Shown here piece after piece: positions 5,505 through 28,099 of a stretch of DNA of 32,000 nucleotides. The position numbers and the translations under genes are program-made. The notes beneath the pieces were generated by a model. The model was not told the DNA's origin. It ran no database searches and was given only the letters and a program-made list of their open reading frames with translations. The stretch lies in NCBI RefSeq assembly GCF_000023205.1, contig NC_012803.1:690001-722000 (forward strand). Reading direction: 5' to 3'. Origin of the DNA: Micrococcus luteus NCTC 2665. Lineage in GTDB: Bacteria > Actinomycetota > Actinomycetes > Actinomycetales > Micrococcaceae. How positions within the stretch are numbered: the first letter of the stretch is position 1; every line of letters begins with the position of its first letter.

Positions 5505-5798
5505 CGATCCTGAAGCCCCTGCACCGACCATGTCGGTGTGGGGGCTTCTTCGTGCCTGGAGGATGACCGGGCCGAGCAGTTCCGCCAGCGTGATGTCGAA
5601 GACCTCCGCGATGGTGGCCAGCTCCTCCAACGTAAAGGCCACCCGAGCGCGAAGCCGGTGTGAGATGCCGCTCTGTGAGACGCCGAGCGCCGCTGCTAGG
5701 TCTGCCTGGCGTTTGCCGGAGCGGGCGAGCCAAGCACGCACCTCTGCGGCGACCATCGAATTGAAATCCGAGCCGCTCTCCTCGTTCGAGTTCGTCAT
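5466..5798 (-). CDS. XRE-family helix-turn-helix regulator (repressor-like arm of a divergent switch)
   Basis: MTNSNEESGSDFNSMVAAEVRAWLARSGKRQADLAAALGVSQSGISHRLRARVAFTLEELATIAEVFDITLAELL is a classic HTH_3/XRE layout. Start ATG is cat at 5796-5798. The C-terminal about 30 codons run through the tRNA terminator hairpin and into the tRNA on the opposite strand. Confidence 0.7.
   Translation of the reverse strand: MTNSNEESGSDFNSMVAAEVRAWLARSGKRQADLAAALGVSQSGISHRLRARVAFTLEELATIAEVFDITLAELLGPVILQARRSPHTDMVGAGASGSLPRLDSNQQPFD
5512..5548 (+). terminator. Long hairpin directly after the tRNA: gaagcccc-tg-caccgac cat gtcggtg-tg-ggggcttc, followed by ttcgtg
   Basis: Inverted repeat read from the sequence. 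It sits between the tRNA and the island. Confidence 0.6.
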
Positions 5799-5850
5799 GG
5801 GCAAGACCCTATGGCTCAGGCGAACGACGCACAAGGTCAGAGAAAAAAAG

Positions 5851-5899
5851 TTGCGATGACCGCAAGGCGAGGGCTGGGCAGATATGCGTACAGCGCATA
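5851..5899. promoter_or_regulatory. Divergent promoter/operator region with two related palindromes, TTGCG-N5-CGCAA (5851-5865) and TATGCG-N5-CGCATA (5883-5899); shared core TGCG-N5-CGCA
   Basis: Read directly from the sequence. It lies between the two divergently transcribed XRE genes and is locally AT-richer (agagaaaaaaag at 5839-5850). Confidence 0.5.
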
Positions 5900-5910
5900 C
5901 AGTGTGGGCC

Positions 5911-6153
5911 ATGAGCAATCACACCCGTTGCGTCAGGTCGAACCTGGCAGCCGAAATCAGTAGACGAGACCTAACCCAGGCCCGCGCAGCGGCACTGGCC
6001 GGTCTCACCCCGGACGGTCTTTCCAAGCGGATGTCCGGGCAGGTCGAATTCCGCCTAGGCGAGCTGCTGGAGCTCGCCCGTGTCCTGGGCGTGCCGTTCG
6101 CGACGTTGGTAGCCGGCATCGATGCTGCAGATGAACAGCTGGCCGAGGCATGA
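5911..6153 (+). CDS. XRE-family helix-turn-helix regulator (Cro-like arm); alternative start ATG 5884
   Basis: MSNHTRCVRSNLAAEISRRDLTQARAAALAGLTPDGLSKRMSGQVEFRLGELLELARVLGVPFATLVAG. The stop overlaps the next start (ATGA at 6150-6153). Confidence 0.7.
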   Translation: MSNHTRCVRSNLAAEISRRDLTQARAAALAGLTPDGLSKRMSGQVEFRLGELLELARVLGVPFATLVAGIDAADEQLAEA

Positions 6154-6986
6154 ACGGCTATTCACTTCAGCTGGCCTACACCCCAGAGGCAGCGCGAGAA
6201 GTCACAGACCAGATCAAGACCGGCCTGGAGTCCGTGTACCACCTGATCCGGTCCGCGTATCGGGGGCGGGCTTGGGAAGTTCTGGGGTACCGGAGCTGGG
6301 ACGAGTACGTGACTCGGGAGTTCGGCAACTTGCATCTTCGGCCACCGCTGGAAAAGCGACAGGACATCGTGCTGTCCCTCCGTGAGGTGGGGATGAGTAC
6401 TCGGGCGATCGCGTCCGCGACACAGATCAGTGAGGCCACGGTGCGGCGGGAGCTTAAGCACGCAGGTGCGTCAAAAGACGCACCTGGACGTGCACCGGCC
6501 TCCGTCGTCGGGGTCGACGGGAAGACCTACGAGGCCACGAGGCCCACTCGCATTGGAAACCTCGAGCCCTCCATGGGGGTCCGAGGTGGTCAAAGTGACG
6601 TTGACGCGGTCTTGGACATGCCGGCCGAGGACTTCGGGATCGAGCCGCTGGACTTGGTCCGGCACGACGAGGAACAGAAGGGCCGCGCGCGTCGTGTGCT
6701 GACTGCGTTCAACGGATCGGGTGCGGCCGCGGTGCCAGCGCTGATCAAGGCGGCTACCCCGGTGGCTTCGCTGGTGTCGCCCGCGACGGGCAAGGCGCTG
6801 GTCGAGGACGAGGACCTTCACGGGGTCGTGTGGGACTCGGTGCGGTGCGTGCGGACTCTGGCGCACGTGATCCGTTCTGTGGGGCATGTCGACGGCGAGT
6901 CTCAGGCAGAGATCCGGTCAACGCTTCGGGACGCGGTGGACGACCTGGATGAGGTGCTGAAGAAGATCGAGGAGGGCACGCGATGA
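6150..6986 (+). CDS. HTH DNA-binding protein of ICE/phage type (ParB/KorB-like region without an obvious nuclease domain)
   Basis: N-terminal RAWEVLGYRSWDEYVTREFG, then the HTH GMSTRAIASATQISEATVRREL. Coupled by ATGA overlaps to both neighbours. The family assignment is tentative. Confidence 0.5.
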   Translation: MNGYSLQLAYTPEAAREVTDQIKTGLESVYHLIRSAYRGRAWEVLGYRSWDEYVTREFGNLHLRPPLEKRQDIVLSLREVGMSTRAIASATQISEATVRRELKHAGASKDAPGRAPASVVGVDGKTYEATRPTRIGNLEPSMGVRGGQSDVDAVLDMPAEDFGIEPLDLVRHDEEQKGRARRVLTAFNGSGAAAVPALIKAATPVASLVSPATGKALVEDEDLHGVVWDSVRCVRTLAHVIRSVGHVDGESQAEIRSTLRDAVDDLDEVLKKIEEGTR

Positions 6987-8134
6987 GCGCGCAGCAGATG
7001 TGGGAGGCCCGAACGTCTGGGCCGAAATGGCCGGAAGCCCCGAGCAGCGGCCAGGCTGTCAGGGCTTCCGAAAACGCTCAATCGGAGACGGTGCACATTC
7101 CAAAGAACACGCTGGTCGAGTACTCGAAGGATAGCACCGGTACGCGGCCCACGGGCAGTGGGATTCGGTCGCTTCCGCGCCGGGTCAACCCGAACGATGG
7201 CCGGTTCATCCGGGCCGTGGTGGCCGGGACCGCTGTGGCCGGGCTGGTGGCGTTCTCCATTTCGTTCGCGGCGCTGTACGAGGTCGCGGCGTGGCTGGGG
7301 CTGCCGCCGTTCATGCATTGGGCAGTGCCGGTCTTCATCGATCTGGCGATCCTGGTCTACGCAGGCTCCGTACTGGTGCACGAGTCCCGAGGGGAGTCCG
7401 CGCGGGCGTCGTGGTGGGCGCTGGGGGCGTTCACGGGCCTGTCGATGATCGCCAACGGGGCGCATGCGTGGAGTGCTGAGAACGCGAGCGTGTGGCAGTC
7501 CGTGGTGGGTGCGCTCATCGCAGTGATGGTTCCGGTGGCGGTGTTCGTGGCCACGAATCAGCTGGCGCGGGTCGCAGTGGAGAACCCGGACTCGCGGCGG
7601 GCCGAGCGCGCATCGCAGGTCTCGGAGGAGGCAGAGCAGCTGAAGGCTCAGGCGGAGCTGGATCGTCGGCGCGCGGAGCTGGAGGCCGAACTCGCGGCGA
7701 GCCGCCGGCAGATCGAGGCCCAGCGGCGCGAGGCCGAGCGGGAGGCCGAAGTGGCCGAGGCTCGGCACCGGCAGGAGCTGGAGCGGATGGAGCGTCAGGC
7801 CGAACTCGAGACCGAACGCGAGGCCCGTGAGGTTCAGCAGGCCGTGGTCGAGGAATCGCAGGTCGCCCAGGGGGTCGAGGTCGCCCAGGGGGTCGAGGTC
7901 GTCGAGACCGTGGCGTCGTCAGAGCCGGTCGCCGCAGAGACGAAGACGGTGGAGAAGGCATCGGGTGCGGACATCACCTCATGGATCGTGGCCCGTGCGC
8001 AGGAGGGCCAGGTGCCCTCGGCAGCAGAGGTCGCAGAGAAGTTCGGATGCTCAGAGCGCACCGGGCGTCGCCGCTTGGCTGATGCCCGTGAGACGCACGC
8101 TGAGGCATTCGGGGCCGGGGAGGAGCAGGCATGA
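6983..8134 (+). CDS. DUF2637-like membrane protein with a long Glu/Arg/Ala coiled coil and a C-terminal HTH-like tail
   Basis: Four TM segments (AVVAGTAVAGLVAFSISFAALYEVAAWLGLPPFMHWAVPVFIDLAILVYAGSVLV...). The coiled coil is EEAEQLKAQAELDRRRAELEAELAASRRQIEAQRREAEREAEVAEARHRQELERMERQAELE. An 18-bp x2 tandem (gtcgcccagggggtcgag, 7862-7897) is present. The tail is AEKFGCSERTGRRRLADA. Confidence 0.6.
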   Translation: MSAQQMWEARTSGPKWPEAPSSGQAVRASENAQSETVHIPKNTLVEYSKDSTGTRPTGSGIRSLPRRVNPNDGRFIRAVVAGTAVAGLVAFSISFAALYEVAAWLGLPPFMHWAVPVFIDLAILVYAGSVLVHESRGESARASWWALGAFTGLSMIANGAHAWSAENASVWQSVVGALIAVMVPVAVFVATNQLARVAVENPDSRRAERASQVSEEAEQLKAQAELDRRRAELEAELAASRRQIEAQRREAEREAEVAEARHRQELERMERQAELETEREAREVQQAVVEESQVAQGVEVAQGVEVVETVASSEPVAAETKTVEKASGADITSWIVARAQEGQVPSAAEVAEKFGCSERTGRRRLADARETHAEAFGAGEEQA

Positions 8135-9189
8135 CCATCGACGCGATGAAGTGGGCGTGGAAGGCTGCGGAGACGGGCCACCTCAACACCGGCCAGGCGT
8201 TCGTGCTTTTGATACTGGGTGACCACGCGGACGAGGCGTGGTCTTGCTACCCGAGCCAGGAGACGTTGGCCCGGCGGTCGGCCCAGACGGTGCGTTCGGT
8301 GGAGCGGCACATCGCCCGCCTGCGAGACCTGGGCCTGGTGGAGACCGAGTCCCGGTACGGGGACGGGCGCGGGCGGATCGGCTTGAGGTACTACCTCCGC
8401 GAAGAGGCCCTGAACGACCTTGTCCAAGACCCCAAGACCCGCATGAACACGCGACCCGACAATCTGGCGGGTAAATCTGAGACCCGCATGAACACGCGAA
8501 CCGACAATCTGGCGGGTAAATCTGAGACCTGCATGAACACGCGACCCGACAATCTGGCGGGTAAATCTGAGACCCGCATGAACACGCGACCCGACAATCT
8601 GGCGGGTGATTCGACTCACCCGACAATTTCGGCGGACTCACCCGACAATCGCGACTTTGCCGACTATAAGGATCGCGCGCGGACTAACCCCCAAGAACCC
8701 TCATCTGTCCGTCCGTCAGTCCGTCAGTCCGGTGCAGTGCGCGCGGAGACGACGACGGACGACGGACGACGGACCGATCAGGCCATCGACGGTGGGGAAG
8801 GCGTGGGGCTGGTCCATCGGGGTGTGGTCCTGGCGGACCTGGTTCAGCGGGTGCCGGCGGCTGCGGACCTCGGGGACGGGCAGCTGCGGTCCATCGTGGA
8901 CGTGGTCTTGGCGCGGGCCTCGGGGCCGGTGCGCAAGCCCACGGCGTTCGTGGCGCGGTCCTTGGCCTCGGAGTTCGAGGAGTTGGTCGCGGTGACCCGG
9001 CCCCGGCCGGTCGCCGTGGCTCAGGCTCCGGCTGCGTCGGGGCAGGTGCGTGAGCTGCGGACCGGTGAGCCGTGCCAGGACCCGGACGTGCACGTCTCGG
9101 CGTACGGGCAGGCCGTGCTTGCGGATTGCCCGCACTGCCGGCTGGAGCGTCGGGCGATGCCACGGGCGTTGGTGGAGGCGGTGGAGTGA
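8131..9189 (+). CDS. Winged-helix DNA-binding protein, replication/transfer-initiator-like, with an internal 15-aa x4 repeat
   Basis: N-terminus MKWAWKAAETGHLNTGQAFVLLILGDHADEAWSCYPSQETLARRSAQTVRSVERHIARLRDLGLVE is a helix-turn-helix fold common in plasmid/ICE/phage Rep-like proteins. The repeat is TRMNTRPDNLAGKSE x4. C-terminal GPVRKPTAFVARSLA motif and a Cys pair. Confidence 0.55.
   Translation: MTIDAMKWAWKAAETGHLNTGQAFVLLILGDHADEAWSCYPSQETLARRSAQTVRSVERHIARLRDLGLVETESRYGDGRGRIGLRYYLREEALNDLVQDPKTRMNTRPDNLAGKSETRMNTRTDNLAGKSETCMNTRPDNLAGKSETRMNTRPDNLAGDSTHPTISADSPDNRDFADYKDRARTNPQEPSSVRPSVRQSGAVRAETTTDDGRRTDQAIDGGEGVGLVHRGVVLADLVQRVPAAADLGDGQLRSIVDVVLARASGPVRKPTAFVARSLASEFEELVAVTRPRPVAVAQAPAASGQVRELRTGEPCQDPDVHVSAYGQAVLADCPHCRLERRAMPRALVEAVE
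8436..8607. repeat. 45-bp tandem repeat, about 3.8 copies (gacccgcatgaacacgcgacccgacaatctggcgggtaaatctga; unit starts 8436, 8481, 8526, 8571), followed by two degenerate cccgacaat cores (8619-8627 and 8641-8649)
   Basis: Counted directly. Copies differ by 1-2 nt. The array is in frame within the 8131-9189 CDS. The core ccgacaatctggcgggt recurs. Confidence 0.9.
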
Positions 9190-10034
9190 TGGCCGGGCAG
9201 GCGGACCGGGTGGCTCCGGCGGGGATGGTGCTGGTGACCGGTGACGAGCTGGCGGAAGCGGTGGCCTCGGTGCGAGGCACGGTGGTGGCCGTGCTCGGAC
9301 CCTCGGGCAACGGCGACGTCGTGGAGGACGTGCTCCAGAGCACGTGGGAGTCCGCGTGGCACTCCCGGGAGCGGTTCGATCCGGACCGGGGTTCCCTGCG
9401 GACCTGGGTCGGCACCATCGCCCGGAACCGGGCGGTGGATCATCTGCGGGCGGTCGGCCGGTCGCGGGCGGGCCAGGAGGCGCTGGAGGCTTCCGCGGTG
9501 GCGCGGGAGAAGACTGCGGTGTCGATGGTCATGGAGGACCCGGCCGAGGCTGTGGTTGAAGCGCTGGCTGCACACCGGGAAGTCGCGGAGGTGATGCGGG
9601 TGGTCGAGTCGGTGATGGAGTCCTCGGAGATGACGGCCCGTGCCCTGGCCGTGGTGCTGGCGTTCGGGGATGACGTCGTGGCGGCATCGGAGGCGATGGG
9701 CGTCTCGGTGACCGCACTGCGTCAGGCGCGGCGTGAGCTGGTGCGCTGTGCCCGGGTGGTCCGGGCGGCGCAGGAGGTGGCCCGTTCGGGGCAGGCGGTG
9801 ACGATGCGCGTGCTGATCAGCTGCCTTCCCGACGACGGGGACGCGGGGGACTGGGCGCGGCAGGTCGCGTTGGCCTGCGCGCAGGCTGGGGGCCGGATGG
9901 AAGCGGTCACGGTCGAGGACGTCATGCAGGCCACCGGGTTCAGCCACTCCACGAGTCGGCAGTACCTGGCCGAGACGCGGCACCTGCTGCGGGTGGCGAC
10001 AACGGTGATCCGAAACGAGAGGGCAGAGAAGTGA
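9189..10034 (+). CDS. ECF-type sigma-70 family RNA polymerase sigma factor, with a long C-terminal extension
   Basis: Region 2-like DVVEDVLQSTWESAWHSRERFDPDRGSLRTWVGTIARNRAVDHLR. Region 4-like AASEAMGVSVTALRQARRELVRCARV. ATG 9189 overlaps the upstream stop (TGATG). The ORF-track start 9072 lies inside the upstream gene. Confidence 0.65.
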   Translation: MAGQADRVAPAGMVLVTGDELAEAVASVRGTVVAVLGPSGNGDVVEDVLQSTWESAWHSRERFDPDRGSLRTWVGTIARNRAVDHLRAVGRSRAGQEALEASAVAREKTAVSMVMEDPAEAVVEALAAHREVAEVMRVVESVMESSEMTARALAVVLAFGDDVVAASEAMGVSVTALRQARRELVRCARVVRAAQEVARSGQAVTMRVLISCLPDDGDAGDWARQVALACAQAGGRMEAVTVEDVMQATGFSHSTSRQYLAETRHLLRVATTVIRNERAEK

Positions 10035-10330
10035 GCGAACAGACGGAGTTCGAGCAGAGCCAAGACGTGCCGGAGGGCCAGGAGCCGCGCGTGGTCTACG
10101 TAGAGCGGGACCGGGGGCTGTTCTCGTCCGTGCGGCGGCTGCGCCAGAGCACGGGTGAGGCCGGGCGGCGGTGGGTGGCGGAGTCCGTGGACGCGCCACT
10201 GCCGACGTCGTGGCAGGAGCGTGTACCGGCCGGGTGGGACTCGGCCCGGGGTCGGTGGGCGATTGCGGCCGTGGCGCTGGTGGTACTCGTGCTGTGGGTG
10301 CTGGCGGTGGTGCAGGCGATGGCGGGCTGA
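10031..10330 (+). CDS. Small single-pass membrane protein, candidate anti-sigma factor by position
   Basis: GTG start overlaps the sigma-factor stop (GTGA). Acidic/charged N-terminal part, then one C-terminal TM segment WAIAAVALVVLVLWVLAVVQAMAG. Confidence 0.45.
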   Translation: MSEQTEFEQSQDVPEGQEPRVVYVERDRGLFSSVRRLRQSTGEAGRRWVAESVDAPLPTSWQERVPAGWDSARGRWAIAAVALVVLVLWVLAVVQAMAG

Positions 10331-10415
10331 CAGACCTTCGCGGTGGCGACCGCGAACCCAGGACGAGACACGGCAACGAAGCAAGACGGGTCAGACGAGC
10401 GACGAGGAGTCGGAC

Positions 10416-11078
10416 ATGTTGAACGGAATCAACCCGGACGGGCTGTCGGGGTGGTCACAGATCAGTGGATGGGTGGTCGGGACGGCGCTGGTCGTGCTGG
10501 TCCTGGCGGTGGGTGCTGGCGTGGTGCTGGCGATGTGGGGCAGGGCCTGGTTTTCGCCTGGCGGGATGCGGAAGGGGTGGACGATGGTCGGGTTGGCGGC
10601 GGTGGGGGCGACGGTGCTGGGCGCTGGCACGGCCGGCGCGAGCTGGGGGGCTGGGCTGGGCACGAGCGAGCTGATGCCCGCCGGGGCCAGGCCACAGTCG
10701 GTCGCGATCGAGAAGAACGCCCCGAAGCAGACCTGCAACCGGCAGGCGGTGCGGGACTTTGACAAGGAGGAGCCGTCGCCGGATCGGGCAGAGCGTGAGC
10801 GTGTGATCAGTGCGTTGCTCGGTGGACAGCCCGCGTTGGACGGGTACGAGTGGGGCAAGGAGCCTACGGGCACGGAATCCTCGTACACGGTCGTCACATC
10901 GGTGAAGTGGTATGCCACGGGCGAGGTGAACGGGTCGGGTGAGCCGGACTGCTCGGCGCAGAACGAGGCCACGGCCGAGTGCTCGCCGGTCGAGGTGCAC
11001 GTGGCGCGTCAGTCGCTGACCAACGGTGCTCAGACCGGGCGGACCCTGACGCTGACGCGGGGTCAGAACTGCTCTTGA
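10416..11078 (+). CDS. Membrane-anchored extracytoplasmic protein (2 N-terminal TM segments, Cys-containing C-terminal domain), function unknown
   Basis: ATG 10416 preceded by a gaggag RBS (10404-10409). MLNGINPDGLSGWSQISGWVVGTALVVLVLAVGAGVVLAMW...MVGLAAVGATVLGAG. Three Cys in the C-terminal domain. Confidence 0.55.
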   Translation: MLNGINPDGLSGWSQISGWVVGTALVVLVLAVGAGVVLAMWGRAWFSPGGMRKGWTMVGLAAVGATVLGAGTAGASWGAGLGTSELMPAGARPQSVAIEKNAPKQTCNRQAVRDFDKEEPSPDRAERERVISALLGGQPALDGYEWGKEPTGTESSYTVVTSVKWYATGEVNGSGEPDCSAQNEATAECSPVEVHVARQSLTNGAQTGRTLTLTRGQNCS

Positions 11079-11093
11079 TCTGATCTGAGGGTT

Positions 11094-11261: not shown

Positions 11262-11567
11262 ATGAGCAATCTGATTCACGCGGCCACCACGGTGGCTGCC
11301 GGTGTCCCGGACATCGCACCGAGCTTCGATGGGCCCTGGATGCCCACCATCCAGAACATCACGGGCCTGGCGTTGGGCACCTTCCTGGTCATCCTGATCG
11401 TCGCCGTCGGCATCGGCGTGCTGGTCTGGATTTTCGGCAAGCTCTCCTCGAGCGGCCGCGCGCAGGACGTGGGTATCAGCTTCGTGGTCTGGGGCATCGT
11501 GGCTGCGGCCCTGATCGCCGGTGCTGCGAGCCTGATCGGTTGGGGCGCGGGCCTGCCGCTGTTCTGA
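11262..11567 (+). CDS. Small 2-TM membrane protein at the head of the transfer operon (pilin/VirB2-like size and topology; homology not established)
   Basis: gggagga RBS before the ATG. 101 aa with two hydrophobic helices, LALGTFLVILIVAVGIGVLVWIF and ISFVVWGIVAAALIAGAASLIGW. Confidence 0.55.
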   Translation: MSNLIHAATTVAAGVPDIAPSFDGPWMPTIQNITGLALGTFLVILIVAVGIGVLVWIFGKLSSSGRAQDVGISFVVWGIVAAALIAGAASLIGWGAGLPLF

Positions 11568-14229: not shown

Positions 14230-14236
14230 TGCGTGA

Positions 14237-21007: not shown

Positions 21008-21278
21008 GGGCTTCTCGGTCTGACGTAGGAGATCCAGTCAGGACGGCCAGCCTGTGATGCCTTCGAATAGTTGGCTCAGGCTGAGGCTGGCCGTCGTGTT
21101 GGGGTCAGTCAGTGCGATTGGTGGCGCGACGATGCCGTGCGGTCTCGAAGATCACGTGCAGGATCGAGGCAACCAGAATCAGAGCAAGTGCAAACCACGT
21201 CCACCCGTCCAGGCTGAAGCGCCCTGGGTTTCGTTCCGGCCTCAGGATGCAACCGGCGGTGAGTCTTGCTGCTAGGGC

Positions 21279-21713
21279 GTGTTGCTAAAGGGTTCGGGGA
21301 CGTGGATGCGCGAGTCTGGGGTCATGTCGCGTGATGTCATCTCGGACGAGGTCTGGGCCGTGATCGGCCCGCTGTTCCCTGCCCCGAAGTCCACCGGTCG
21401 GCCCCCGGTGGATCGGCGCGCGGTGGTCGAGGCCACCGCGTGGCGCTTCCGCACCGGAGCTCCGTGGCGGGATCTGCCCGAGCGGTTCGGGAACTGGAAC
21501 ACGATCTACAAGAACTTCAACCGGTGGGCCGCCCAGGGTGTGTGGGAGCGCGTGCTCGAGCGCACTCAGTCGATGGCACAGCAGGCTGGCGAGCTGGATT
21601 GGGTGGCCTCGATCGATTCCACGATCGTGCGCGTCCATCAGCACGGGGCGACCCTGCCCCGCCCCACAGGGGGCCTGGATGAACTACAAGAAATCCGGGG
21701 ACGAGCCGGCTGA
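21279..21713 (+). CDS. IS5-family transposase orfA (copy 1)
   Basis: MSRDVISDEVWAVIGPLFP...GRPPVDRRAVVEATAWRFRTGAPWRDLPERFGNWNTIYKNFNRWAAQGVWERV is the DUF4096/HTH N-terminal part of IS5/IS427-type transposases. Confidence 0.8.
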   Translation: MLLKGSGTWMRESGVMSRDVISDEVWAVIGPLFPAPKSTGRPPVDRRAVVEATAWRFRTGAPWRDLPERFGNWNTIYKNFNRWAAQGVWERVLERTQSMAQQAGELDWVASIDSTIVRVHQHGATLPRPTGGLDELQEIRGRAG

Positions 21714-22204
21714 TCATGCCATCGGACGCTCCCGCGGCGGTCTGACGACGAAGTCTCATCTGGTCTGTGATGGCAAGGGCAGGGTGCTGGCGTTCGTGGT
21801 GACCGGCGGGCAGGTGGCTTCACACCTCGATGCTGGCCACCACGCTGGAGCTGATCAGCGTGGCCGGGGCCCGTGGGCGGCCCAGGGCGCGGCCTGACCG
21901 CCTGATTGCAGACAAGGGCTACCCCTCGAAGGCGAACCGGGCCTGGCTGCGCCGGCATGGCATCGCGGCCACGATCCCCGAGCGGGCCGATCAGATCACG
22001 CACCGGCGCAGACGCCCGGGCCGGCCGATCGACTTCGGTGAAGACCAGCGCCAGCGCTACCGGGGACGCAATGTCGTGGAGCGGTGCTTCAACCGGCTCA
22101 AACAGTGGCGAGGAATCGCGATGCGCTCGGACAAGTACGCCCGGAACTATCACGCCGGGCTCAGCCTCGCAGCGACACTGCACTGGCTGACTACCCTCCT
22201 TTAG
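21679..22204 (+). pseudogene. IS5-family transposase orfB (copy 1), frameshifted
   Basis: The DDE part is split between frames. Frame 1 reads MNYKKSGDEPADHAIGRSRGGLTTKSHLVCDGKGRVLAFVVTGGQVA, then junk. The 21830-22204 frame resumes MLATTLELISVAGARGRP...RYRGRNVVERCFNRLKQWRGIAMRSDKYARNY. Confidence 0.75.
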
Positions 22205-22220
22205 CAACACGCCCTAGGGC

Positions 22221-22655
22221 GTGTTGCTAAAGGGTTCGGGGACGTGGATGCGCGAGTCTGGGGTCATGTCGCGTGATGTCATCTCGGACGAGGTCTGGGC
22301 CGTGATCGGCCCACTGTTCCCCGAAGCCAAGACCACCGGGCGTCCGCCCGTGGATCGGCGCGCGGTGGTCGAGGCCACCGCGTGGCGCTTCCGCACCGGG
22401 GCGCCGTGGCGGGATCTGCCCGAGCGGTTCGGGAACTGGAACACGATCTACAAGAACTTCAACCGGTGGGCCGCCCAGGGCGTGTGGGAGCGGGTGCTGG
22501 AGAAGACCCAGTCCATGGCACAGCAGGCTGGCGAGCTGGACTGGGTGGCCTCGATCGATTCCACGATCGTGCGCGTCCACCAGCACGGGGCGACCCTGCC
22601 CCGCCCCACAGGGGGCCTGGATGAACTACAAGAAATCCGGGGACGAGCCGGCTGA
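22221..22655 (+). CDS. IS5-family transposase orfA (copy 2)
   Basis: 144 aa, close paralogue of the copy 1 orfA with scattered substitutions. Confidence 0.85.
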   Translation: MLLKGSGTWMRESGVMSRDVISDEVWAVIGPLFPEAKTTGRPPVDRRAVVEATAWRFRTGAPWRDLPERFGNWNTIYKNFNRWAAQGVWERVLEKTQSMAQQAGELDWVASIDSTIVRVHQHGATLPRPTGGLDELQEIRGRAG

Positions 22656-23145
22656 TCATGCCATCGGACGCTCCCGCGGCGGTCTGACGACGAAGTCTCA
22701 TCTGGTCTGTGATGGCAAGGGCAGGGTGCTGGCGTTCGTGGTGACCGGCGGCCAGGTCGCGGACACCTCGATGCTGGCCACCACGATGGAGCAGATCAGC
22801 GTTGCCGGGGCCCGTGGGCGGCCCCGGATACGGCCTGACCGCCTGATTGCGGACAAGGGCTACCCCTCGAAGGCGAACCGGGCTTGGCTGCGCCGGCATG
22901 GCATCGCGGCCACGATCCCCGAGCGGGCCGATCAGATCGCGCACCGGCGCCGCCGCCCAGGAAGACCGATCGACTTCGGTGAAGACCAGCGCCAGCGCTA
23001 CCGGGGACGCAATGTCGTGGAGCGGTGCTTCAACCGGCTCAAACAGTGGCGAGGGATCGCGATGCGTTCGGACAAGTACGCCCGGAACTATCACGCCGGG
23101 CTCAGCCTCGCAGCGACACTGCACTGGCTGACTACCCTACTTTAG
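22621..23145 (+). CDS. IS5-family transposase orfB / DDE domain (copy 2), presumably expressed as an orfA-orfB fusion by recoding
   Basis: HAIGRSRGGLTTKSHLVCDGKGRVLAFVVTGGQVADTSM...LIADKGYPSKANRAWLRRHGIAATIPER...RYRGRNVVERCFNRLKQWRGIAMRSDKYARNY. The frame is open far upstream of the ATG and overlaps the orfA end. It is in the +1 frame relative to orfA (400-nt offset). Confidence 0.85.
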   Translation: MNYKKSGDEPADHAIGRSRGGLTTKSHLVCDGKGRVLAFVVTGGQVADTSMLATTMEQISVAGARGRPRIRPDRLIADKGYPSKANRAWLRRHGIAATIPERADQIAHRRRRPGRPIDFGEDQRQRYRGRNVVERCFNRLKQWRGIAMRSDKYARNYHAGLSLAATLHWLTTLL

Positions 23146-23186
23146 CAACACGCCCTAGTGGCGGCCGGCCGCCGCGCACCGACCCA

Positions 23187-23279
23187 GCCCGGTACGACAA
23201 ACTCGCCTCGACCTACCGCGCCGCGGTGCTCCTACGCGCGATCCTGATCTGGCTCTCTACCCTGGCCCAGGTGTCGTAG
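23187..23279 (+). pseudogene. 3'-terminal remnant of a different IS5-family transposase gene
   Basis: It encodes ARYDKLASTYRAAVLLRAILIWLSTL followed by a stop. This resembles the conserved C-terminus of IS5-family transposases (compare RSDKYARNYHAGLSLAATLHWL in the adjacent copies). Nothing transposase-like lies upstream of it. Confidence 0.4.
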
Positions 23280-23289
23280 ACGCGGCACC

Positions 23290-23311
23290 GGGGGGGGGGG
23301 GGGGGGGGGGG
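23290..23311. repeat. Homopolymeric tract of 22 consecutive G
   Basis: Counted directly: g at 23290 followed by 21 more. Confidence 0.95.
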
Positions 23312-23473
23312 CAGTGCGCTCATGCCGAGAGCCGGATGCCTGGCGAACACGTTCAGTGCGCACCGATTCCTCCCACACGCCAAGCTGGGCCCGCACCAGT
23401 AGTATTTGTCCATGGATCTATCACGCAAGATGGGACTGCCCCCACTTTGGTTGACACGTATGGGTTGGGGTGT

Positions 23474-24355
23474 TCAGGCCGCTGCTGCGGTCGTGTAGAT
23501 CATCTCAAACTCGACGGGCGTGAGCTTGCCTAGGGCGCGCTGGCGACGTCGGCGGTTGTACTTGGTTTCGATCCAGGTGACCATCGCGAGGCGGAGGTCT
23601 TCGCGGGTGTCCCAGCGTCGGGTGTTGAGCACGTTCTTTTGCAGCAGTGCGAAGAAGCTCTCCATGCTGGCGTTGTCGCCGGCGCCGTAGGAGCGGCCCA
23701 TCGATCCGACGAGATCGTTGTTCGCGAGCAGCCGTTGGGTCTTCTTGGCGCGAAATTGGCCGCCCCTGTCCGAGTGGCACACGGTGTCGACTGGTGAGCG
23801 CAGCGCGATGGCGTTGCGCATCGCGGCCCGGGCGAGCGAAGACTTCATCCGGGAGTCGATGGAGTAGCCGACGATCTTGTTCGACCAGACGTCCTTGATC
23901 GCGCAGATGTAGATCTTCCCTTCCCGCGTGGGGTGCTCCGAGATGTCCCACAGCCAGACTTTGTTCGGGCCGTTGGCGACGAACTCGTGTCGGACGATGC
24001 CGTGCTCGTCGACCACCGCGAGGAGGTCGTCGTGCGGCGCCGGACCGGTGGAGCCCGCCTTGCTGCGCTTCTTGTGGTGTGACGCGGTGATGCCGGCGAT
24101 CCGACAGAGCCGGTGGACGCGGTTCTCGCCGACCCTGATGCCGTGCTCGAGGTCGAGCTCGTCGCTGAGGAACCTGTAGCCCAGCGTGGCGTCGTCCTCA
24201 TGGATGTCGTAGAGGACGTCGATGAGGTGTGCGTCATCCCAGTCGCGCTGACAGACCGGGTCTTTGAGCCACTTGTAGTACCCCTGGGTCGACAAGCCCA
24301 GGACCCTGCACGCCACCGCGACCGGCACCCTGATCGGGGCGCCGGTCTCGGCCAT
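23474..24355 (-). CDS. IS3-family transposase orfB (rve/DDE integrase domain)
   Basis: WLWDISEHPTREGKIYICAIKDVWSNKIVGYS...VCHSDRGGQFRAKK...GSMGRSYGAGDNASMESFFALLQKNVL...KYNRRRRQRALGKLTPVEFE. A -1 slip at GGGAAAA reads GKIVFPLVREMAETGAP, joining orfA to orfB. Confidence 0.9.
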   Translation of the reverse strand: MAETGAPIRVPVAVACRVLGLSTQGYYKWLKDPVCQRDWDDAHLIDVLYDIHEDDATLGYRFLSDELDLEHGIRVGENRVHRLCRIAGITASHHKKRSKAGSTGPAPHDDLLAVVDEHGIVRHEFVANGPNKVWLWDISEHPTREGKIYICAIKDVWSNKIVGYSIDSRMKSSLARAAMRNAIALRSPVDTVCHSDRGGQFRAKKTQRLLANNDLVGSMGRSYGAGDNASMESFFALLQKNVLNTRRWDTREDLRLAMVTWIETKYNRRRRQRALGKLTPVEFEMIYTTAAAA

Positions 24356-24375
24356 CTCACGGACGAGCGGGAAGA

Positions 24376-24663
24376 CTATTTTCCCGGCAGGTTCGCCTGC
24401 GACAGGTAGGCAGCGGCCCGGCGTAGGACCTCGTTCTCCTGCTCGAGGAGTCGAATCCTCTTGTTTGCCTCACGCAGCTGCTTGCGCTCGTCTTCAGTCA
24501 GGCCGGGACGGCGGCCGTCCTCGATGTCGGCCTGTTTCATCCAGTTCGCCAGCGAGCCTTCGGAGATGCCGAAGTCCTTCGCGATCTGCGACAAGGGCGC
24601 CCGGCCCTGGCGGGCCACGGCCACGACGTCGTCACGGAACTCTTTGGGGTAGGGCTTTGCCAC
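24376..24663 (-). CDS. IS3-family transposase orfA (HTH)
   Basis: MAKPYPKEFRDDVVAVARQGRAPLSQIAKDFGISEGSLANWMKQADIEDG...LREANKRIRLLEQENEVLRRAAAYLS. A slippery heptamer G-GGA-AAA (24379-24385, minus strand) lies just before the stop. Confidence 0.9.
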   Translation of the reverse strand: MAKPYPKEFRDDVVAVARQGRAPLSQIAKDFGISEGSLANWMKQADIEDGRRPGLTEDERKQLREANKRIRLLEQENEVLRRAAAYLSQANLPGK

Positions 24664-24742
24664 GGGGACATCCTTCCGCCTGAGGCCGAAACCTCAGAGG
24701 TCAGGTGTCAACCGAACTCGGGGCAGTCCCAAGGACTGGTTC

Positions 24743-25681
24743 GTGTTCCTCGGTGCCCAGAACCTGGACTGGTGTGAGGTGCGATTGGAGAACGTCGCCG
24801 AGTTCGTCGCCTGGCTACGCCGACCGCCGCAGCTGCGCGACGGGACGGTCCCGATCCTGCCGTCGGTGGAGCATCACTGCACTGAGTCCACGGTCAACCG
24901 GAAACTCTCCGCGCTCAGCGCTTTCTACCAGCACGCGGCGCGCCACGGCGTCGACCTCGGGGAGTTGCTCAGGGCGTGGCAGCCGGCCGGAGGTCGTGGC
25001 TCGGGGTGGAAGCCGTTCTTGCACCACATCAGCAAGGGCAAACCGCAGGCTCGGCGGGCCATCGTGCTGAGCGCGCAGAGCAAGCTCCCGCGCGTGCTCT
25101 CCGCCGCCGAGGTGCAGACGATCCTCGATGCCTGTGACCATCTGCGGGACCGGTTCTTGTTCGCGGTGCTGTTCGACACCGGGATGCGGATCGGTGAGGC
25201 GCTGGGGCTGCGGCATGAGGACATTGCCGCTGCCGAGTCCCAGATCACGGTCCAGCGCCGGGTCAATGACAACGGTGCCCGCTCCAAGTCATGCGCACCG
25301 CGGACGGTGCCGGTCAGCGCGGAGCTGGTCCGGCTCTACGCCGACTACCTTCACCTGGAGTACGACGATCTAGACTCCGACTACGTCTTCGTCAACCTCT
25401 GGGGCCGACCCCACGGTCACCCGCTGACCTACACGGCCGTCTACGACCTGGTCAAGCGTCTGCGGCGGCGCACCGGGATCGACTTCGACCCGCACTGGTA
25501 CCGCCACACCGCCGCGACCCGGATGCTGCGCGACGGTGTGCCGATCGAGGTGGTCTCCAAGCTCCTCGGCCACGCCGACATCACCACCACCACCGCCGTC
25601 TACGGGCACCTGAGCGCCGAGGACGCTCGCAAGGCGCTGGAGGAAGCGGGTTGGTTCACCGGCCGAGAGGTGCGACTGTGA
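24743..25681 (+). CDS. Tyrosine recombinase, Tn554 TnpA-like; its true 5' end (ATG 23412 plus 5 codons) is displaced by the IS3 insertion
   Basis: SAM-like N-domain (VAEFVAWLR...STVNRKLSALSAFYQHAARHG). Catalytic region FDTGMRIGEALGLRHEDI ... HWYRHTAATRMLRDGVPIEVVSKLLGHADITTTTAVYGHL (R..H-x-x-R..H..Y). The frame is open back to the IS3 end at 24732. Confidence 0.8.
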   Translation: MFLGAQNLDWCEVRLENVAEFVAWLRRPPQLRDGTVPILPSVEHHCTESTVNRKLSALSAFYQHAARHGVDLGELLRAWQPAGGRGSGWKPFLHHISKGKPQARRAIVLSAQSKLPRVLSAAEVQTILDACDHLRDRFLFAVLFDTGMRIGEALGLRHEDIAAAESQITVQRRVNDNGARSKSCAPRTVPVSAELVRLYADYLHLEYDDLDSDYVFVNLWGRPHGHPLTYTAVYDLVKRLRRRTGIDFDPHWYRHTAATRMLRDGVPIEVVSKLLGHADITTTTAVYGHLSAEDARKALEEAGWFTGREVRL

Positions 25682-27153
25682 GTGCGCCGAGCCCGCTGGC
25701 GCCCGAACAGCCATCAAGGGCCGGGCGTGAGCGGCGCCGAACGTCCCTTCAGACCAACAGCTGGGATGCTGAGTACGGCAAGGACGTCTGGCGGCTGCGT
25801 GAACTTGGCATCAAGGACAGACGGCTGGCCCGGATCACCTTCGAGGACATCCCGCAGCCCTGGCTCAAAGCCTTGGCCAAACGCTGGGCCCGCTGGCGCC
25901 TGGCCACGGGCCTCGGGGTGGTCAGCGTCTCCTCGGGCACCCGGGCGATCGCGCACTTCGGGCAGTTCCTCGCGGACGTGGCACCCTCCGTCCAGGGGCT
26001 GGCAGACCTGGACCGGGACCTGCTGGAGCGCTACCTCGCGCACCTGCACGCCCGGTTCTCGGGCACCGTGAAGCACCGCATGTTGATCGGCCAGCTGAAC
26101 CTGTTCTTCACCACCATCCGGCAGCACGGCTGGGACGATTCCCTGCCTTCGACGGTGATGTTCTTCAGCGAGGACTTCCCCAAGGAGGCCATCCGGCAAC
26201 CGCGCGCGCTGAGCGAAACCGTGATGGCTCAGCTGGAGAACCCGGACAACCTCGCCAAGTGGAACAACGCCGCCTATGAGCTGATCACGCTGATCCTGAT
26301 GGGCTGCGGGCTGCGCATCACCGACACCGTCCGTCTGCCGACCGACTGCATCGTCTACGACGGCGAGGGAGCGCCCTACCTGCGCTACCTCAACCACAAG
26401 ATGAAACGCGAAGCCCTGGTGCCCATCGACGCCGACCTCGCCGAAGCCATCACTGCGCAGCGTCGCCGTGTGCACGAGCGGTGGCCGGGCGGGGAGCCGG
26501 TGCTCTTCCCGCGAGTCACGGACAACGACGACGGCCGCGAGTCGGTCGGGGACGGGGTCTACCGCAAGGCGCTGCACAGCTGGCTCAAGCGCTGCGACGT
26601 CCGTGATGAGCACGGCCAGCCCGTTCGCGTCGTCCCGCACAGTTTCCGGCACACCCTGGGTACGAGACTGATCAACCGAGACGTCCCCCAAGAAGTGGTC
26701 CGGCGGATTCTCGACCACGACTCCCACGTCATGACCGCCCACTATGCCCGGCTCAGTGACACCACGATCCGCCGGCACTGGGAAGCTGCACGGAAGGTCA
26801 ACATCAAGGGCGAGACCGTCACCCTCGACCCGCACGGCCCCTTGGCCGAGGCGGCCTGGGCCAAGCAGCGCGTCGGGCGGGCCACCCAGGCCCTGCCCAA
26901 CGGCTTCTGCGGACTGCCGGTCCAGCAATCCTGCCCGCACGCGAACGCGTGCCTGAGCTGCCCAATGTTCATCACCACCTCCGAGTTCCTGCCCGAGCAC
27001 CGCCAGCATCGTCAACAGGTCGTGCAGATCATCACCGCTGCCGAAGCCCGCGGCCAGCAACGACTGATCGAGATGAACCAGCAGGTCCTGGGAAACCTCG
27101 ATCAGATCATCACCTCGTTGGAGGACGACCAGGACGACGAGGCAAGTACCTGA
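25678..27153 (+). CDS. Second tyrosine recombinase, Tn554 TnpB-like
   Basis: GTG 25678 overlaps the upstream stop (GTGA). The ORF-track start 25291 lies inside the upstream gene. LILMGCGLRITDTVRL, HSFRHTLGTRLINRDVPQEVVRRILDHDSHVMTAHYARL and the Cys-rich FCGLPVQQSCPHANACLSCPMFITT tail seen in this class. 491 aa. Confidence 0.8.
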   Translation: MSAPSPLAPEQPSRAGRERRRTSLQTNSWDAEYGKDVWRLRELGIKDRRLARITFEDIPQPWLKALAKRWARWRLATGLGVVSVSSGTRAIAHFGQFLADVAPSVQGLADLDRDLLERYLAHLHARFSGTVKHRMLIGQLNLFFTTIRQHGWDDSLPSTVMFFSEDFPKEAIRQPRALSETVMAQLENPDNLAKWNNAAYELITLILMGCGLRITDTVRLPTDCIVYDGEGAPYLRYLNHKMKREALVPIDADLAEAITAQRRRVHERWPGGEPVLFPRVTDNDDGRESVGDGVYRKALHSWLKRCDVRDEHGQPVRVVPHSFRHTLGTRLINRDVPQEVVRRILDHDSHVMTAHYARLSDTTIRRHWEAARKVNIKGETVTLDPHGPLAEAAWAKQRVGRATQALPNGFCGLPVQQSCPHANACLSCPMFITTSEFLPEHRQHRQQVVQIITAAEARGQQRLIEMNQQVLGNLDQIITSLEDDQDDEAST

Positions 27154-27542
27154 TGCATGCCGATAACAGCCACCACTTGATCGCCGCCGCCCAGCGGCGC
27201 CACGAGACCGCCCGTGCCAAAGCCACCCAGGCTCTTCGCGACCTCGACCGCGAGGGAGGAGCAGTCACCTTCCAGATCGTCGCGCAGAAGGCACACGTCT
27301 CGCGGTCCTGGCTCTACACCCAGGACGACATCTGCGCCGAGGTCCGCCGGCTCCGCGGCCTCCAGCAGGGTGCCGTCGGCGCACCACTGCCCGCGTCTCA
27401 ACGTTCCACCGATGCATCCCTGATACGCCGCCTCGAAGTTGCCAACGCGCGCGTCCGCGACCTCACCGCCGAGAACCAGCGACTCCGGAAACAACTGGAA
27501 CACGCCCTCGGGCGACTACGGGCGTCGAACCCGGAGCGGTGA
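27153..27542 (+). CDS. Small third protein of the recombinase module (Tn554 TnpC position; DUF6262-like), C-terminal coiled coil
   Basis: ATG 27153 overlaps the upstream stop (TGATG). 129 aa. VTFQIVAQKAHVSRSWLYTQ is HTH-like. LEVANARVRDLTAENQRLRKQLEHALGRL is leucine-zipper-like. Confidence 0.65.
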   Translation: MHADNSHHLIAAAQRRHETARAKATQALRDLDREGGAVTFQIVAQKAHVSRSWLYTQDDICAEVRRLRGLQQGAVGAPLPASQRSTDASLIRRLEVANARVRDLTAENQRLRKQLEHALGRLRASNPER

Positions 27543-28099
27543 CTGGGGCCGAGCAGCTTGACGGACGACCCCAGATAACCACGTCCACAAGGAAGACCCC
27601 CGATCCGCTGAGTCTTGTGCTGGACGTCACGGCCACGTCTGACCAGACTCCAGATAACCACCGTTTCCGCCCCTTGGTGCAAGATGTCGGGACTGGTGTG
27701 TGATCAGGTGCCAGGTGGATCGAACCGCCTGACTGACATCGGACGGAACCGGGGCACGACGCCGTCGGCGACGTTGGAGGCACAGGAGAAGACGCGCCGT
27801 CTCGTAGCCTGGCCGTTCGTGGCGGGGCAGGTCTGGGATCTGCTCGGTTTCGGTAGGTGCGCGTCGCTGTGGAGGGAGCTTCGTCGATGACGGTCTTCGG
27901 GATCATCTGGCTCAGTGTGCTCACCCACCTGCCGTCCGGAATCGACCCGTTCCGGGCCGTGGGCCTCCATCTGGGGGCAGCCGCGCTCAGCGGCTTCATC
28001 CTCCACGTGCTGACGGGCGGTTCTGCCGACCGGGCGGCATGCACCGCCCCCTACGAGCGCCGTGTCGCGTTCAGCACTCTGATGGGCCTCCCCGCCCCC

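Follow-up and report, generated by a model that had tools for sequence, protein, structure and literature searches.

The island at the tRNA-Asn gene of Micrococcus luteus NCTC 2665 is probably the channel half of a Micrococcaceae conjugative element that has lost its second module and attR and persists as a non-autonomous remnant. Family matches in the window (the whole 32,000-nucleotide stretch of DNA analyzed here) and synteny with relatives agree with an earlier reading made from the sequence alone (the sequence-only reading), which called a T4SS-type actinobacterial conjugative element at this tRNA gene.

The family appears to have two forms, circular plasmids and integrated elements seated in the 3' half of tRNA-Asn. 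A complete member would have one long operon, headed by an XRE/HTH_3 regulatory switch and a sigma factor, that encodes the channel (a VirB6-like protein, a split VirB4, and small membrane proteins), the coupling protein, and a conserved trio of HNH nuclease, zinc-ribbon protein, and DUF4913-like protein. Beyond the cargo, 10 to 40 kb off and in the opposite orientation, a second module would code for a MobF/TrwC relaxase with its coiled-coil accessory protein and for an operon of peptidoglycan hydrolases, with the integrase outermost, next to attR. NCTC 2665 lacks the second module and attR, has only IS5-type, IS3, and Tn554-order DNA at 21272 to 27655, and has its ATPase and coupling-protein genes uncoupled from the upstream operon by ISMlu11, such that the element is presumably unable to nick, excise, or integrate alone. 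The ancestor of this copy was probably complete, insertion sequences presumably caused the loss of the second module, and the channel genes of the island may still work.

Borders and gene content of the island

The tRNA-Asn (GTT) gene is at 5433 to 5505 on the plus strand (ARAGORN and Rfam), and the attachment core (attL) is presumed to be the 3' half of this gene, starting at 5467. Bases 5467 to 5496 recur inverted at the end of one contig (L051), beside a tyrosine integrase, and the junction between tRNA and element is the same in three relative loci (L018, L020, and L024). The G+C content is 0.71 to 0.79 in the flanks versus 0.63 to 0.70 across about 5500 to 28000, a drop of 5 to 7 points, and housekeeping genes lie on both sides as previously described: dnaG and a PepSY gene on the left, and alpha/beta hydrolase, DUF72, SDR, and nucleoside hydrolase genes on the right. 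The island does follow directly on the tRNA, where the G+C content falls, but its start had been placed after a G+C-rich hairpin read from the sequence at 5513 to 5549 (no strand); because the attachment core lies inside the tRNA, this hairpin is element DNA. It is found at the equivalent place in all three relatives and, lying between the convergent tRNA and XRE genes, could be a terminator of both. The right border, previously set at 27560, moves to a junction zone at 27656 to 28036 (no strand), where homology to the hydrolase flank of other strains begins at 27656, 27803, or 28032 to 28036, depending on the strain. No second copy of the tRNA-Asn 3' end is present in the window, the right junction included, and no empty tRNA-Asn site was found among the strain contexts compared.

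The first gene was taken for a plus-strand open reading frame but is on the minus strand (5798 to 5466), coding for a 110-aa XRE-type helix-turn-helix repressor with weak HTH matches. It is divergent from the next gene, and its tail reads into tRNA-Asn; it is annotated with HTH_3/HTH_31 in L034 to L038, and homologues (48 to 60% identical) occupy the equivalent position in L018, L020, and L024. All remaining genes up to the coupling protein are on the plus strand, in a long operon that starts with an 89-aa HTH_3 regulator (5884 to 6153; Pfam HTH_3, E 1.4e-7). The XRE/HTH_3 module is swapped for an unrelated allele in strains with identical DnaG. Next are a 278-aa DNA-binding protein (HTH_23; 6150 to 6986; Pfam and PHROG 29861) with homologues in chromosomal and plasmid relatives, a 383-aa DUF2637 membrane protein (6983 to 8134; Pfam DUF2637, E 9e-10) also kept in relatives, a 352-aa HTH_36 protein (8131 to 9189; Pfam HTH_36, E 2e-15) resembling phage and plasmid replication initiators (PHROG replication-initiation families, down to E 1e-16), and a 281-aa sigma-70/ECF-type sigma factor (9189 to 10034; Pfam Sigma70_r2, E 8e-15, and NCBIfam). 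A tandem array of about four 45-bp units, palindromic at their core, lies within the HTH_36 gene (8390 to 8612; no strand), and its units are candidate iterons; relatives have repeat arrays of like layout but other sequence.

The following genes code for a 99-aa protein with a C-terminal membrane segment (10031 to 10330; an ORF with high GC3, found in M. luteus relatives) and a 220-aa membrane or secreted protein (10416 to 11078), which has no Pfam or NCBIfam match but is kept in all relatives and is a probable channel component. The small two-TM protein described earlier is the 101-aa product of 11262 to 11567, with two membrane segments and kept in relatives. The T4SS core was likewise correctly recognized, as judged by Pfam and NCBIfam matches: a 346-aa TrbL/VirB6-like membrane protein (11600 to 12640; Pfam TrbL, E 6e-4, below the cut-off, but conserved in relatives), a 529-aa SCO6880-family protein (12640 to 14229; NCBIfam SCO6880_fam, 229 bits against a cut-off of 60), a 500-aa VirB4 C-terminal-type ATPase (15671 to 17173; sub-threshold matches to four VirB4 models), and a 634-aa VirD4/TraG-type coupling protein (17173 to 19077; Pfam TraG-D_C, E 1e-23; T4SS-DNA_transf, E 1e-17; and TrwB_AAD_bind). 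The SCO6880-family protein also aligns with positions 192 to 365 of a VirB4 model and appears to be the equivalent of the VirB4 N-terminal half. Ten or eleven stop/start overlaps, evident from ORF coordinates and sequence, connect about 15 genes, as had been reported.

Three plus-strand genes following the coupling protein are kept together in every chromosomal and plasmid relative. The 126-aa product of 19082 to 19462 is a probable HNH-type nuclease, with a CxxC...DLH...CRxHHxxLH motif, weak matches to HNH families, and best fold matches that are all HNH nucleases, albeit non-significant (E >= 0.1). A 90-aa Cys/His-rich, zinc-ribbon-like protein (19459 to 19731) overlaps both neighboring genes, and an equivalent gene of 89 to 103 aa is called in relatives. 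The third is a conserved 282-aa protein (19731 to 20579) with a helical domain and a beta-sandwich; its 103 homologues carry no Pfam domain, and a search of PDB folds with its structure model (pLDDT 81) gave no match. The DUF4913-like protein of the sequence-only reading is represented, faintly, by this protein (DUF4913 matches 5 of 40 homologues, best E 0.005), whereas the 126-aa protein looks HNH-type. The last gene before the IS block, a plus-strand 125-aa ORF (20576 to 20953), was seen only in the NCTC 2665 lineage and has no homologue in the other loci compared.

The IS256-family element ISMlu11 (14237 to 15670, plus strand; Transposase_mut, E 3e-116) was previously overlooked. Its inverted repeats are 26 nt long, and a target duplication of 8 bp (ATGCGTGA, at 14229 to 14236 and 15671 to 15678) flanks it. 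The element is 99.7% identical to a copy on plasmid NC_022599 and has inserted precisely where the stop of the SCO6880 gene overlaps the start of the ATPase gene, a junction that is uninterrupted in L001. The ATPase ORF is intact, being the same length as uninterrupted copies and 98% identical to them. Past 20953, ahead of the right junction, the window holds only two tandem plus-strand IS5-family copies (21272 to 23158, as 21272 to 22217 and 22214 to 23158; DUF4096 and DDE_Tnp_1 domains, 19- to 20-nt terminal inverted repeats), a minus-strand IS3-family element (23431 to 24731; HTH_Tnp_1 and rve domains, 27-nt inverted repeats, flanking 3 bp mismatched as AGA versus AGG), and a lineage-specific plus-strand unit with Tn554 gene order (24732 to 27655; Pfam). 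The last of these codes for tyrosine recombinases of 312 and 491 aa and a 129-aa DUF6262 protein (genes 24743 to 27542), and these are, as stated earlier, the only recombinases, located behind the IS cluster.

The second module of related elements

The backbone, its gene order unchanged, adjoins tRNA-Asn in M. antarcticus (where dnaG is upstream), in Citricoccus nitrophenolicus, and in the uncultured Micrococcaceae MAG UBA3381; it is also found on three circular plasmids, one each from Citricoccus, Arthrobacter, and Pseudarthrobacter. In intact relatives, a second module lies 10 to 40 kb from the transfer operon and comprises a 1,230-aa MobF (TrwC) relaxase together with an accessory gene, an operon for peptidoglycan hydrolases, and a distal integrase. 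All three plasmids have MobF and the accessory gene far from the channel operon, although MobF of the Pseudarthrobacter plasmid matches in three pieces only and is unannotated, and thus may be disrupted. In the Glutamicibacter uratoxydans chromosome, the channel, SSB, giant helicase, and MobF (in opposite orientation) are contiguous, and in the Citricoccus SGAir0253 chromosome a large serine recombinase, the hydrolase operon, and MobF are about 27 kb from the channel operon. An M. luteus-type contig has the order tRNA-Asn 3' half, tyrosine integrase, hydrolase operon, accessory gene, MobF, and giant helicase, and we read the tRNA half-copy beside the integrase as attR. No single contiguous M. 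luteus sequence showed both the channel half and the MobF/integrase half; the tRNA half-site at the contig end and the synteny in other genera suggest that the two are linked.

The relatives' MobF, accessory gene, hydrolase operon, and distal integrase have no homologue in the window. Pfam, NCBIfam, and PHROGs searches find no relaxase family in any island ORF, and tblastn with the MobF relaxases of related plasmids gives no match in the window, which upholds the earlier report of a missing relaxase within these limits. That no integrase adjoins the tRNA also stands, the family integrase being absent from the island. The missing relaxase thus has an ordinary explanation, as the relaxase/hydrolase/integrase half is gone and insertion sequences are in its place. 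Of the explanations offered previously, that of a truncated remnant is therefore supported; its further detail, that the loss was IS-mediated and started right after 20953, is plausible.

In every M. luteus context seen, cargo directly follows the 282-aa gene, with no MobF within 10 kb of it, and no family-type MobF was found on M. luteus contigs of >175 kb among the best 120 homologues, suggesting that the relaxase-less state may be long-standing and widespread in M. luteus, and not a loss peculiar to NCTC 2665. The transfer genes are under purifying selection across M. luteus chromosomes, with channel ORFs of full length in five copies (dS 0.07 to 0.11, dN/dS 0.10 to 0.25). We note that intact, selected channel genes are an oddity, and would be unexpected for a dead remnant.

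Alternative readings

This selection would fit a relaxase-less channel that is maintained as a chromosomal helper for a relaxase supplied in trans (by a plasmid, another island, or an intact copy), or that is co-opted like the Streptomyces cmdABCDEF genes. All M. luteus contexts retrieved include the left half, the large contigs have no family-type MobF among those best homologues, and a related Streptomyces cluster is needed for SLP2 transfer (PMC2782261). We nonetheless regard such a role as unlikely, as the NCTC 2665 operon is broken by the IS256-family element between the two VirB4 halves and the family peptidoglycan hydrolase is missing; moreover, the low dN/dS may date from complete ancestors, before recent independent truncations, and the islands of other strains could hold a divergent relaxase in their remaining 10 to 20 kb. 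An unrecognized DNA-processing protein was suggested earlier, but it is very unlikely that the element is still self-transmissible through such an enzyme encoded beside the coupling protein. The enzyme could be the HNH nuclease together with the zinc-ribbon and DUF4913-like proteins, or else the HTH_36 initiator working on the internal repeats. In favor of this reading are the conservation of the trio, the HNH motif, the 282-aa protein without a known fold, and the conserved layout of the repeats. However, relatives with the trio also carry a canonical MobF, so the trio is no substitute for it, and since the family relaxase is an ordinary MobF an unrecognized one is no longer needed. We know of no HNH nuclease that forms the covalent 5' adduct used by relaxases, and no integrase or attR is present for excision.

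Integration and excision of the whole island by the distal recombinase pair and DUF6262 protein, also proposed earlier, is highly improbable. The island has no other site-specific recombinases, and these are encoded at its distal end, next to the core flank. However, this exact protein was found in NCTC 2665-type records alone, the unit is missing from the hydrolase flank in nine other strains, no tRNA-end repeat lies beside it, and intact relatives have their own integrase adjoining the tRNA-Asn half-site. Strain L013, 99.7 to 99.9% identical up to 27656, where homology resumes, has no such unit, as expected of a separate insertion. That these are ordinary, vertically inherited Micrococcaceae core genes is scarcely credible. 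They do occupy the same site in M. antarcticus and all M. luteus contexts seen, and identities between the two species (coupling protein 83%, VirB4 78%) are near that of DnaG (80%). Against this, the G+C content is below that of the flanks, the backbone of the Citricoccus plasmid is 96.6% identical to a Citricoccus chromosome over 8.7 kb, divergence is mosaic (dS 0.05 to 1.4 in element genes versus 0.002 in adjacent dnaG), the regulatory module is exchanged between strains, and a scan of species representatives with two exact peptide patterns found only 12 loci.

Comparison with known systems

Actinobacterial T4SS-type ICEs combine an integrase, a VirD4-like T4CP, a VirB4-like ATPase, and a MOBF/TrwC relaxase (Ghinet et al. 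2011, PMC3218068). Complete relatives of the island likewise possess the full set of four signature genes and use a tRNA gene as their integration site, whereas the window copy has only the T4CP and the split VirB4 and would thus be missed by a signature-based screen. The family also differs from these ICEs in that its relaxase and integrase are 10 to 40 kb from the channel operon, with the integrase at the tRNA-distal end. Defective ICEs ("DICEs") are described in Streptomyces populations (Choufa et al. 2022, PMC9513070), and the island resembles them as a conjugation module without integrase and relaxase that remains in the chromosome; it differs in host family and backbone, and the genes it has kept are intact and show purifying selection across a single species.

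The plasmids NZ_CP133844.1 (Citricoccus), NZ_CP015735.1 (Arthrobacter sp. U41), and NZ_CP047899.1 (Pseudarthrobacter) share the gene order from HTH_3 to the 282-aa protein, with 33 to 72% protein identity to the window, but they carry MobF, the accessory gene, SLT/CHAP hydrolases, ParA/ParB, and SSB, and have no tRNA junction. Among the Streptomyces T4SS-like clusters (the SLP2 transfer genes, cmdABCDEF [SCO4126-4131], and SCO6871-6884; Xie et al. 2009, PMC2782261), there is a similar set of SCO6880-type protein, adjacent ATPase, and membrane proteins, a likeness compared for the SCO6880 family alone. The SLP2 cluster is required for conjugal transfer, whereas cmdABCDEF, unlike the island, is a core chromosomal cluster that affects sporulation (PMC2782261).

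Gene content and borders of the island

The island follows a tRNA-Asn (GTT) gene at 5433-5505, the sole Rfam match in the window, and a hairpin lies after the tRNA at 5513-5549; a bile-acid/sodium symporter homologue, dnaG, and a PepSY gene lie to its left. The G+C content is 0.63 to 0.70 inside the island and 0.71 to 0.79 in the flanks. Genes for an alpha/beta hydrolase, DUF72, SDR, and nucleoside hydrolase proteins lie to the right, beyond about 28036, and homology to the flank of other strains begins at 27656, 27803, or 28032-28036, depending on the strain. The left limit set in the sequence-only reading stands, and the right limit is moved to where this flank homology resumes (27656-28036). 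We note that the DNA beyond the hydrolase gene varies in nearly every one of the other M. luteus strains (loci L007-L016), with copper resistance, cadmium resistance, MmeI/Abi defense, and glp genes, many IS copies, and an inversion in one strain; the hydrolase flank at this end of the island is a place where M. luteus strains carry copper-resistance or defense genes.

An XRE-type regulator gene (5798 to 5466, minus strand), whose ORF crosses the hairpin into the tRNA gene, is divergent from a plus-strand operon, much of which is joined by stop/start overlaps. The operon codes, in order, for an HTH_3 regulator, a 278-aa HTH protein, a DUF2637 protein, an HTH_36 protein, and a sigma-70/ECF factor, followed by three small membrane or secreted proteins, a TrbL/VirB6-like protein, and an SCO6880-family protein, and then by a 500-aa VirB4 C-terminal-type ATPase, a 634-aa VirD4/TraG coupling protein, and proteins of 126, 90, 282, and 125 aa. 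The SCO6880-family protein scores 229.1 bits against a curated cutoff of 60 (NCBIfam NF042935), and the coupling protein matches TraG-D_C (1e-23) and T4SS-DNA_transf (1e-17). Matches of the 500-aa ATPase to VirB4 models are sub-threshold; the N-terminal half of the VirB4 model is matched by the SCO6880 protein (12640-14229) and the C-terminal half by the ATPase (15671-17173), and VirB4 is therefore split into two genes, an arrangement that holds throughout the element family. The T4CP and VirB4 ATPase of an autonomous ICE are thus both present, and no FtsK_SpoIIIE translocase of the FtsK/TraB-type AICEs was matched among the island proteins.

The HTH_36 protein matches phage and plasmid replication initiators, and its gene (8131-9189) contains about four 45-bp tandem units with the palindromic core CCCGACAAnCTGnCGGG at 8390-8612, directly 3' of the winged-helix-coding region. 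Relatives have a repeat array at the same place in the HTH_36 gene, with a different sequence and copy number. In layout the array may be likened to the iterons of the lambda origin, which lie within the O gene, and the repeats are a candidate oriV or oriT.

The element family on chromosomes and plasmids

A scan based on the ATPase, with one genome per species, returned 12 loci. In Micrococcus antarcticus, Citricoccus nitrophenolicus, and the metagenome-assembled genome UBA3381, the gene order from the XRE gene to the 282-aa gene is the same and directly adjoins tRNA-Asn; each has an XRE ORF that runs into the tRNA gene and a hairpin after the tRNA, and in M. antarcticus dnaG is upstream of the element, as in the window. 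The element occupies the tRNA-Asn site in every M. luteus context retrieved with an identical DnaG, and exact-protein look-ups with DnaG and the right-flank hydrolase recovered no empty site (20/20 contexts carry the island); the same look-up with the PepSY protein returned no record.

Related elements are also carried by circular plasmids of Citricoccus, Arthrobacter, Pseudarthrobacter, and others, found by tblastn with the 126-aa and 282-aa proteins. The full HTH_3-to-282-aa gene order is present on all three plasmids examined in detail, and over 8.7 kb the plasmid from Citricoccus shares 96.6% identity with the copy in the chromosome of Citricoccus sp. SGAir0253. Matches to a tRNA-Asn-like attP on the related plasmids are at chance level. 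Within M. luteus, synonymous divergence (dS) of the element genes is mosaic along the element, ranging from 0.05 to 1.4, compared with 0.002 for the adjacent dnaG, and the XRE/HTH_3 module is replaced outright between strains: loci L030 and L031 have XRE/HTH_3 alleles unrelated to window 5640-6172 despite identical DnaG, in the manner of swapped immunity regions. Element G+C is below that of the flanks in high-G+C hosts. The plasmid copies, the divergence, the module swaps, and the low G+C together speak for a horizontally exchanged element and against the alternative that these are ordinary core genes.

Two short contigs labeled Streptomyces sp. NPDC (L025 and L027) code for proteins with 96 to 98% identity to the M. 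luteus ATPase and are probably Micrococcus contamination of those assemblies. In a metagenome scaffold (L034, 8642-13329), the element's sigma-factor gene is truncated and joined to OEP/RND efflux genes of Gram-negative type; the scaffold is probably chimeric.

The relaxase and integrase half

No relaxase family was matched among the island proteins in Pfam, NCBIfam, or PHROGs, and the earlier claim of a missing relaxase withstands this profile check. Searches by tblastn with the family MobF proteins, the MobF accessory protein, the integrase, and every hydrolase-operon protein found no match in the window, and the TrwC relaxase domain (PF08751) with C-terminal helicase that marks MOBF systems is absent. 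The window contains no homologue of the family integrases, whether tyrosine (M. luteus-type contig L051) or serine (locus L056), or of the peptidoglycan hydrolase (the SLT/M23 or SLT/CHAP gene of relatives), and exact 11-mers, a repeat finder, and 7-nt-seeded BLAST gave no second tRNA-Asn 3' end (attR) above chance. It thus lacks the integrase, attL/attR direct repeats, relaxase, and peptidoglycan hydrolase of an autonomous ICE; in place of the element's own site-specific integrase there is only a lineage-specific trio in Tn554 order.

These functions are present in relatives, where a PF08751-bearing MobF is found both on plasmids and in chromosomes. The Citricoccus and Arthrobacter plasmids have an annotated MobF family relaxase of 1,230 to 1,265 aa behind a conserved 239- to 277-aa gene; on the Pseudarthrobacter plasmid, MobF homology is in three pieces only, with no annotation, and the gene may be disrupted. 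On all three plasmids, MobF is tens of kilobases from the channel operon. We note that MOB-suite typing in PLSDB lists NZ_CP133844.1, NZ_CP015735.1, and NZ_CP047899.1 (L044-L050) as non-mobilizable, while the first two have a RefSeq-annotated MobF relaxase. TrwC-domain homologues are chromosomal in Citricoccus, M. terreus, M. cohnii, Glutamicibacter, and Nesterenkonia, and some M. luteus assemblies also have them; several are on contigs equal in length to those listed for the 282-aa homologues, which suggests that the contigs are the same. In Glutamicibacter uratoxydans, made contiguous by joining two overlapping loci, the channel operon is followed by the 282-aa gene, SSB, a 2,227-aa helicase-related protein, and then MobF and its accessory gene, both reversed. 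In Citricoccus SGAir0253, about 27 kb separate the channel operon from a stretch with a large serine recombinase, a hydrolase operon (glutaredoxin/ATPase/SLT-CHAP), the accessory gene, and MobF.

L051 appears to show the far end of the element. Its first 30 nt are an inverted exact copy of window 5467-5496, a segment that reaches from the final base of the anticodon into the T-arm; genes for a 74-aa protein and a 285-aa tyrosine integrase come next, then the hydrolase operon, the accessory gene, and MobF, with the giant helicase last. The homology breaks off at the anticodon loop, which makes this a tRNA half-site of a type expected at attR. From the gene orders in relatives and this half-site, the complete integrated form is best read with the integrase and attR at the far end: tRNA-Asn (attL) would be followed by the regulators, channel, coupling protein, HNH/zinc-ribbon/282-aa trio, and cargo, and then by SSB and helicase and by MobF, the hydrolase operon, and the integrase, these last three reversed, up to attR. 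No single M. luteus contig was found in which the channel half is joined to the MobF half; in the contexts retrieved, the 282-aa gene is followed by cargo. In strain L013, a 74-aa gene downstream of glpK was considered as an element end and rejected, since its alignment shows similarity limited to the coding region.

The sequence-only reading of a T4SS-type island with neither a relaxase nor a tRNA-proximal integrase is confirmed, and its interpretation is supported in part. Of the explanations it offered, a truncated remnant is favored, the second module being absent from the window and present in relatives. The two tyrosine recombinases and DUF6262 protein at the island's distal end (24743-27542), which were proposed to integrate it, fit a Tn554-type element by gene order and domains only; they were found only in NCTC 2665-type records and are missing at the right end of nine other strains, which argues against that role. 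An unrecognized DNA-processing protein was also proposed, and the candidates are the genes at 19082-20579 for a probable HNH nuclease (126 aa), a 90-aa Cys/His-rich zinc-ribbon-like protein, and the 282-aa protein. In every relative, chromosomal or plasmid-borne and also where MobF is present, these three genes come after that of the coupling protein, and the trio therefore accompanies the relaxase rather than substituting for it. With no MobF, accessory gene, integrase, hydrolase operon, or attR, and with a lineage-specific recombinase trio, the island is non-autonomous, a derivative whose half for DNA processing and integration has been lost.

Within the HNH/zinc-ribbon/282-aa trio, the 126-aa protein has a CxxC...DLH...CRxHHxxLH motif with H59 invariant and weak, sub-threshold profile matches to several HNH families; the best fold matches of its model (pLDDT 87) are all HNH nucleases (Cap5, Cas5-HNH, and phage T5 SciA), although not significant (E 0.1 to 0.5). 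The 282-aa protein was considered as a hidden relaxase and rejected, having no family match and no PDB fold match to a confident model (pLDDT 81). Its description as DUF4913-like holds only as a faint likeness: the protein itself does not match DUF4913 (PF16259), and 5 of 40 homologues do (best E, 0.005).

The island also carries insertions. ISMlu11 (14237-15670), overlooked earlier, has a Mutator-type transposase, 26-nt terminal inverted repeats, and an 8-bp target duplication, as in the IS256 family; a Micrococcus plasmid carries a 99.7% identical copy. Its target is the exact TGATG overlap of the SCO6880 and ATPase genes (the two VirB4 halves), and comparison with an uninterrupted relative shows that the duplication ATGCGTGA (site 14229-15678) restores the ATPase start codon. 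Both ORFs are left intact yet uncoupled: the ATG is kept, but the upstream ribosome-binding context of the ATPase gene is gone. A tandem pair of IS5-family copies (21272-23158) follows 20953, and then an IS3 (23431-24731); the 3 bp on either side of the IS3, AGA (23428-23430) and AGG (24732-24734), are not a matching duplication and would fit rearrangement or deletion at one IS3 end. A 50-bp stretch at 21209-21258, 86% identical to DNA between the ADH and giant helicase genes of the M. luteus MobF contigs (L051-L054), may be a remnant of the lost region or a mere short repeat. Judging from the present occupants of the space, IS elements may have caused the loss of the second half.

Retained channel genes and comparison with known systems

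Some features sit poorly with a simple wreck, above all the intact state of the channel genes. Five M. luteus copies have complete channel ORFs, with dS of 0.07 to 0.11 and dN/dS of 0.10 to 0.25. Variable cargo begins about 50 to 700 nt after the 282-aa gene in all M. luteus copies examined, consisting of mer, cad, cation-efflux, or zinc/manganese-uptake genes or IS copies, and it is in this stretch that M. luteus strains carry resistance genes for mercury, cadmium, and zinc/cation efflux. No family MobF among the best 120 homologues is on an M. luteus contig of >175 kb. The truncations may be recent and independent, or selection may instead keep the channel half, for example for moving DNA processed by a relaxase supplied in trans. 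We consider it rather improbable that the module is kept by selection as a mating apparatus fixed in the M. luteus chromosome, serving mobilizable plasmids or islands or chromosomal transfer, possibly with the HNH/zinc-ribbon/DUF4913-like trio in DNA processing. The retained genes do look selected, raising the question of whether a chromosomal channel helps other DNA to move in a naturally recombinogenic skin bacterium.

The NCTC 2665 island was not found described in the literature searched for SCO6880, DUF4913, and M. luteus ICEs. SCO6880-type clusters have been tied both to the transfer of SLP2 and to an effect on sporulation (PMC2782261), and defective ICEs are described in Streptomyces (PMC9513070). 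The puzzle of the missing relaxase dissolves because the MobF and integrase of this family are ordinary, encoded far from the channel genes, and lost in the window copy. ICE and plasmid typing tools can miss or mislabel such a family, as signature screens need four genes close together. A 2011 survey of actinobacterial ICEs demanded an integrase, T4CP, VirB4, and TrwC relaxase together (PMC3218068), and this four-gene signature would miss the window copy.
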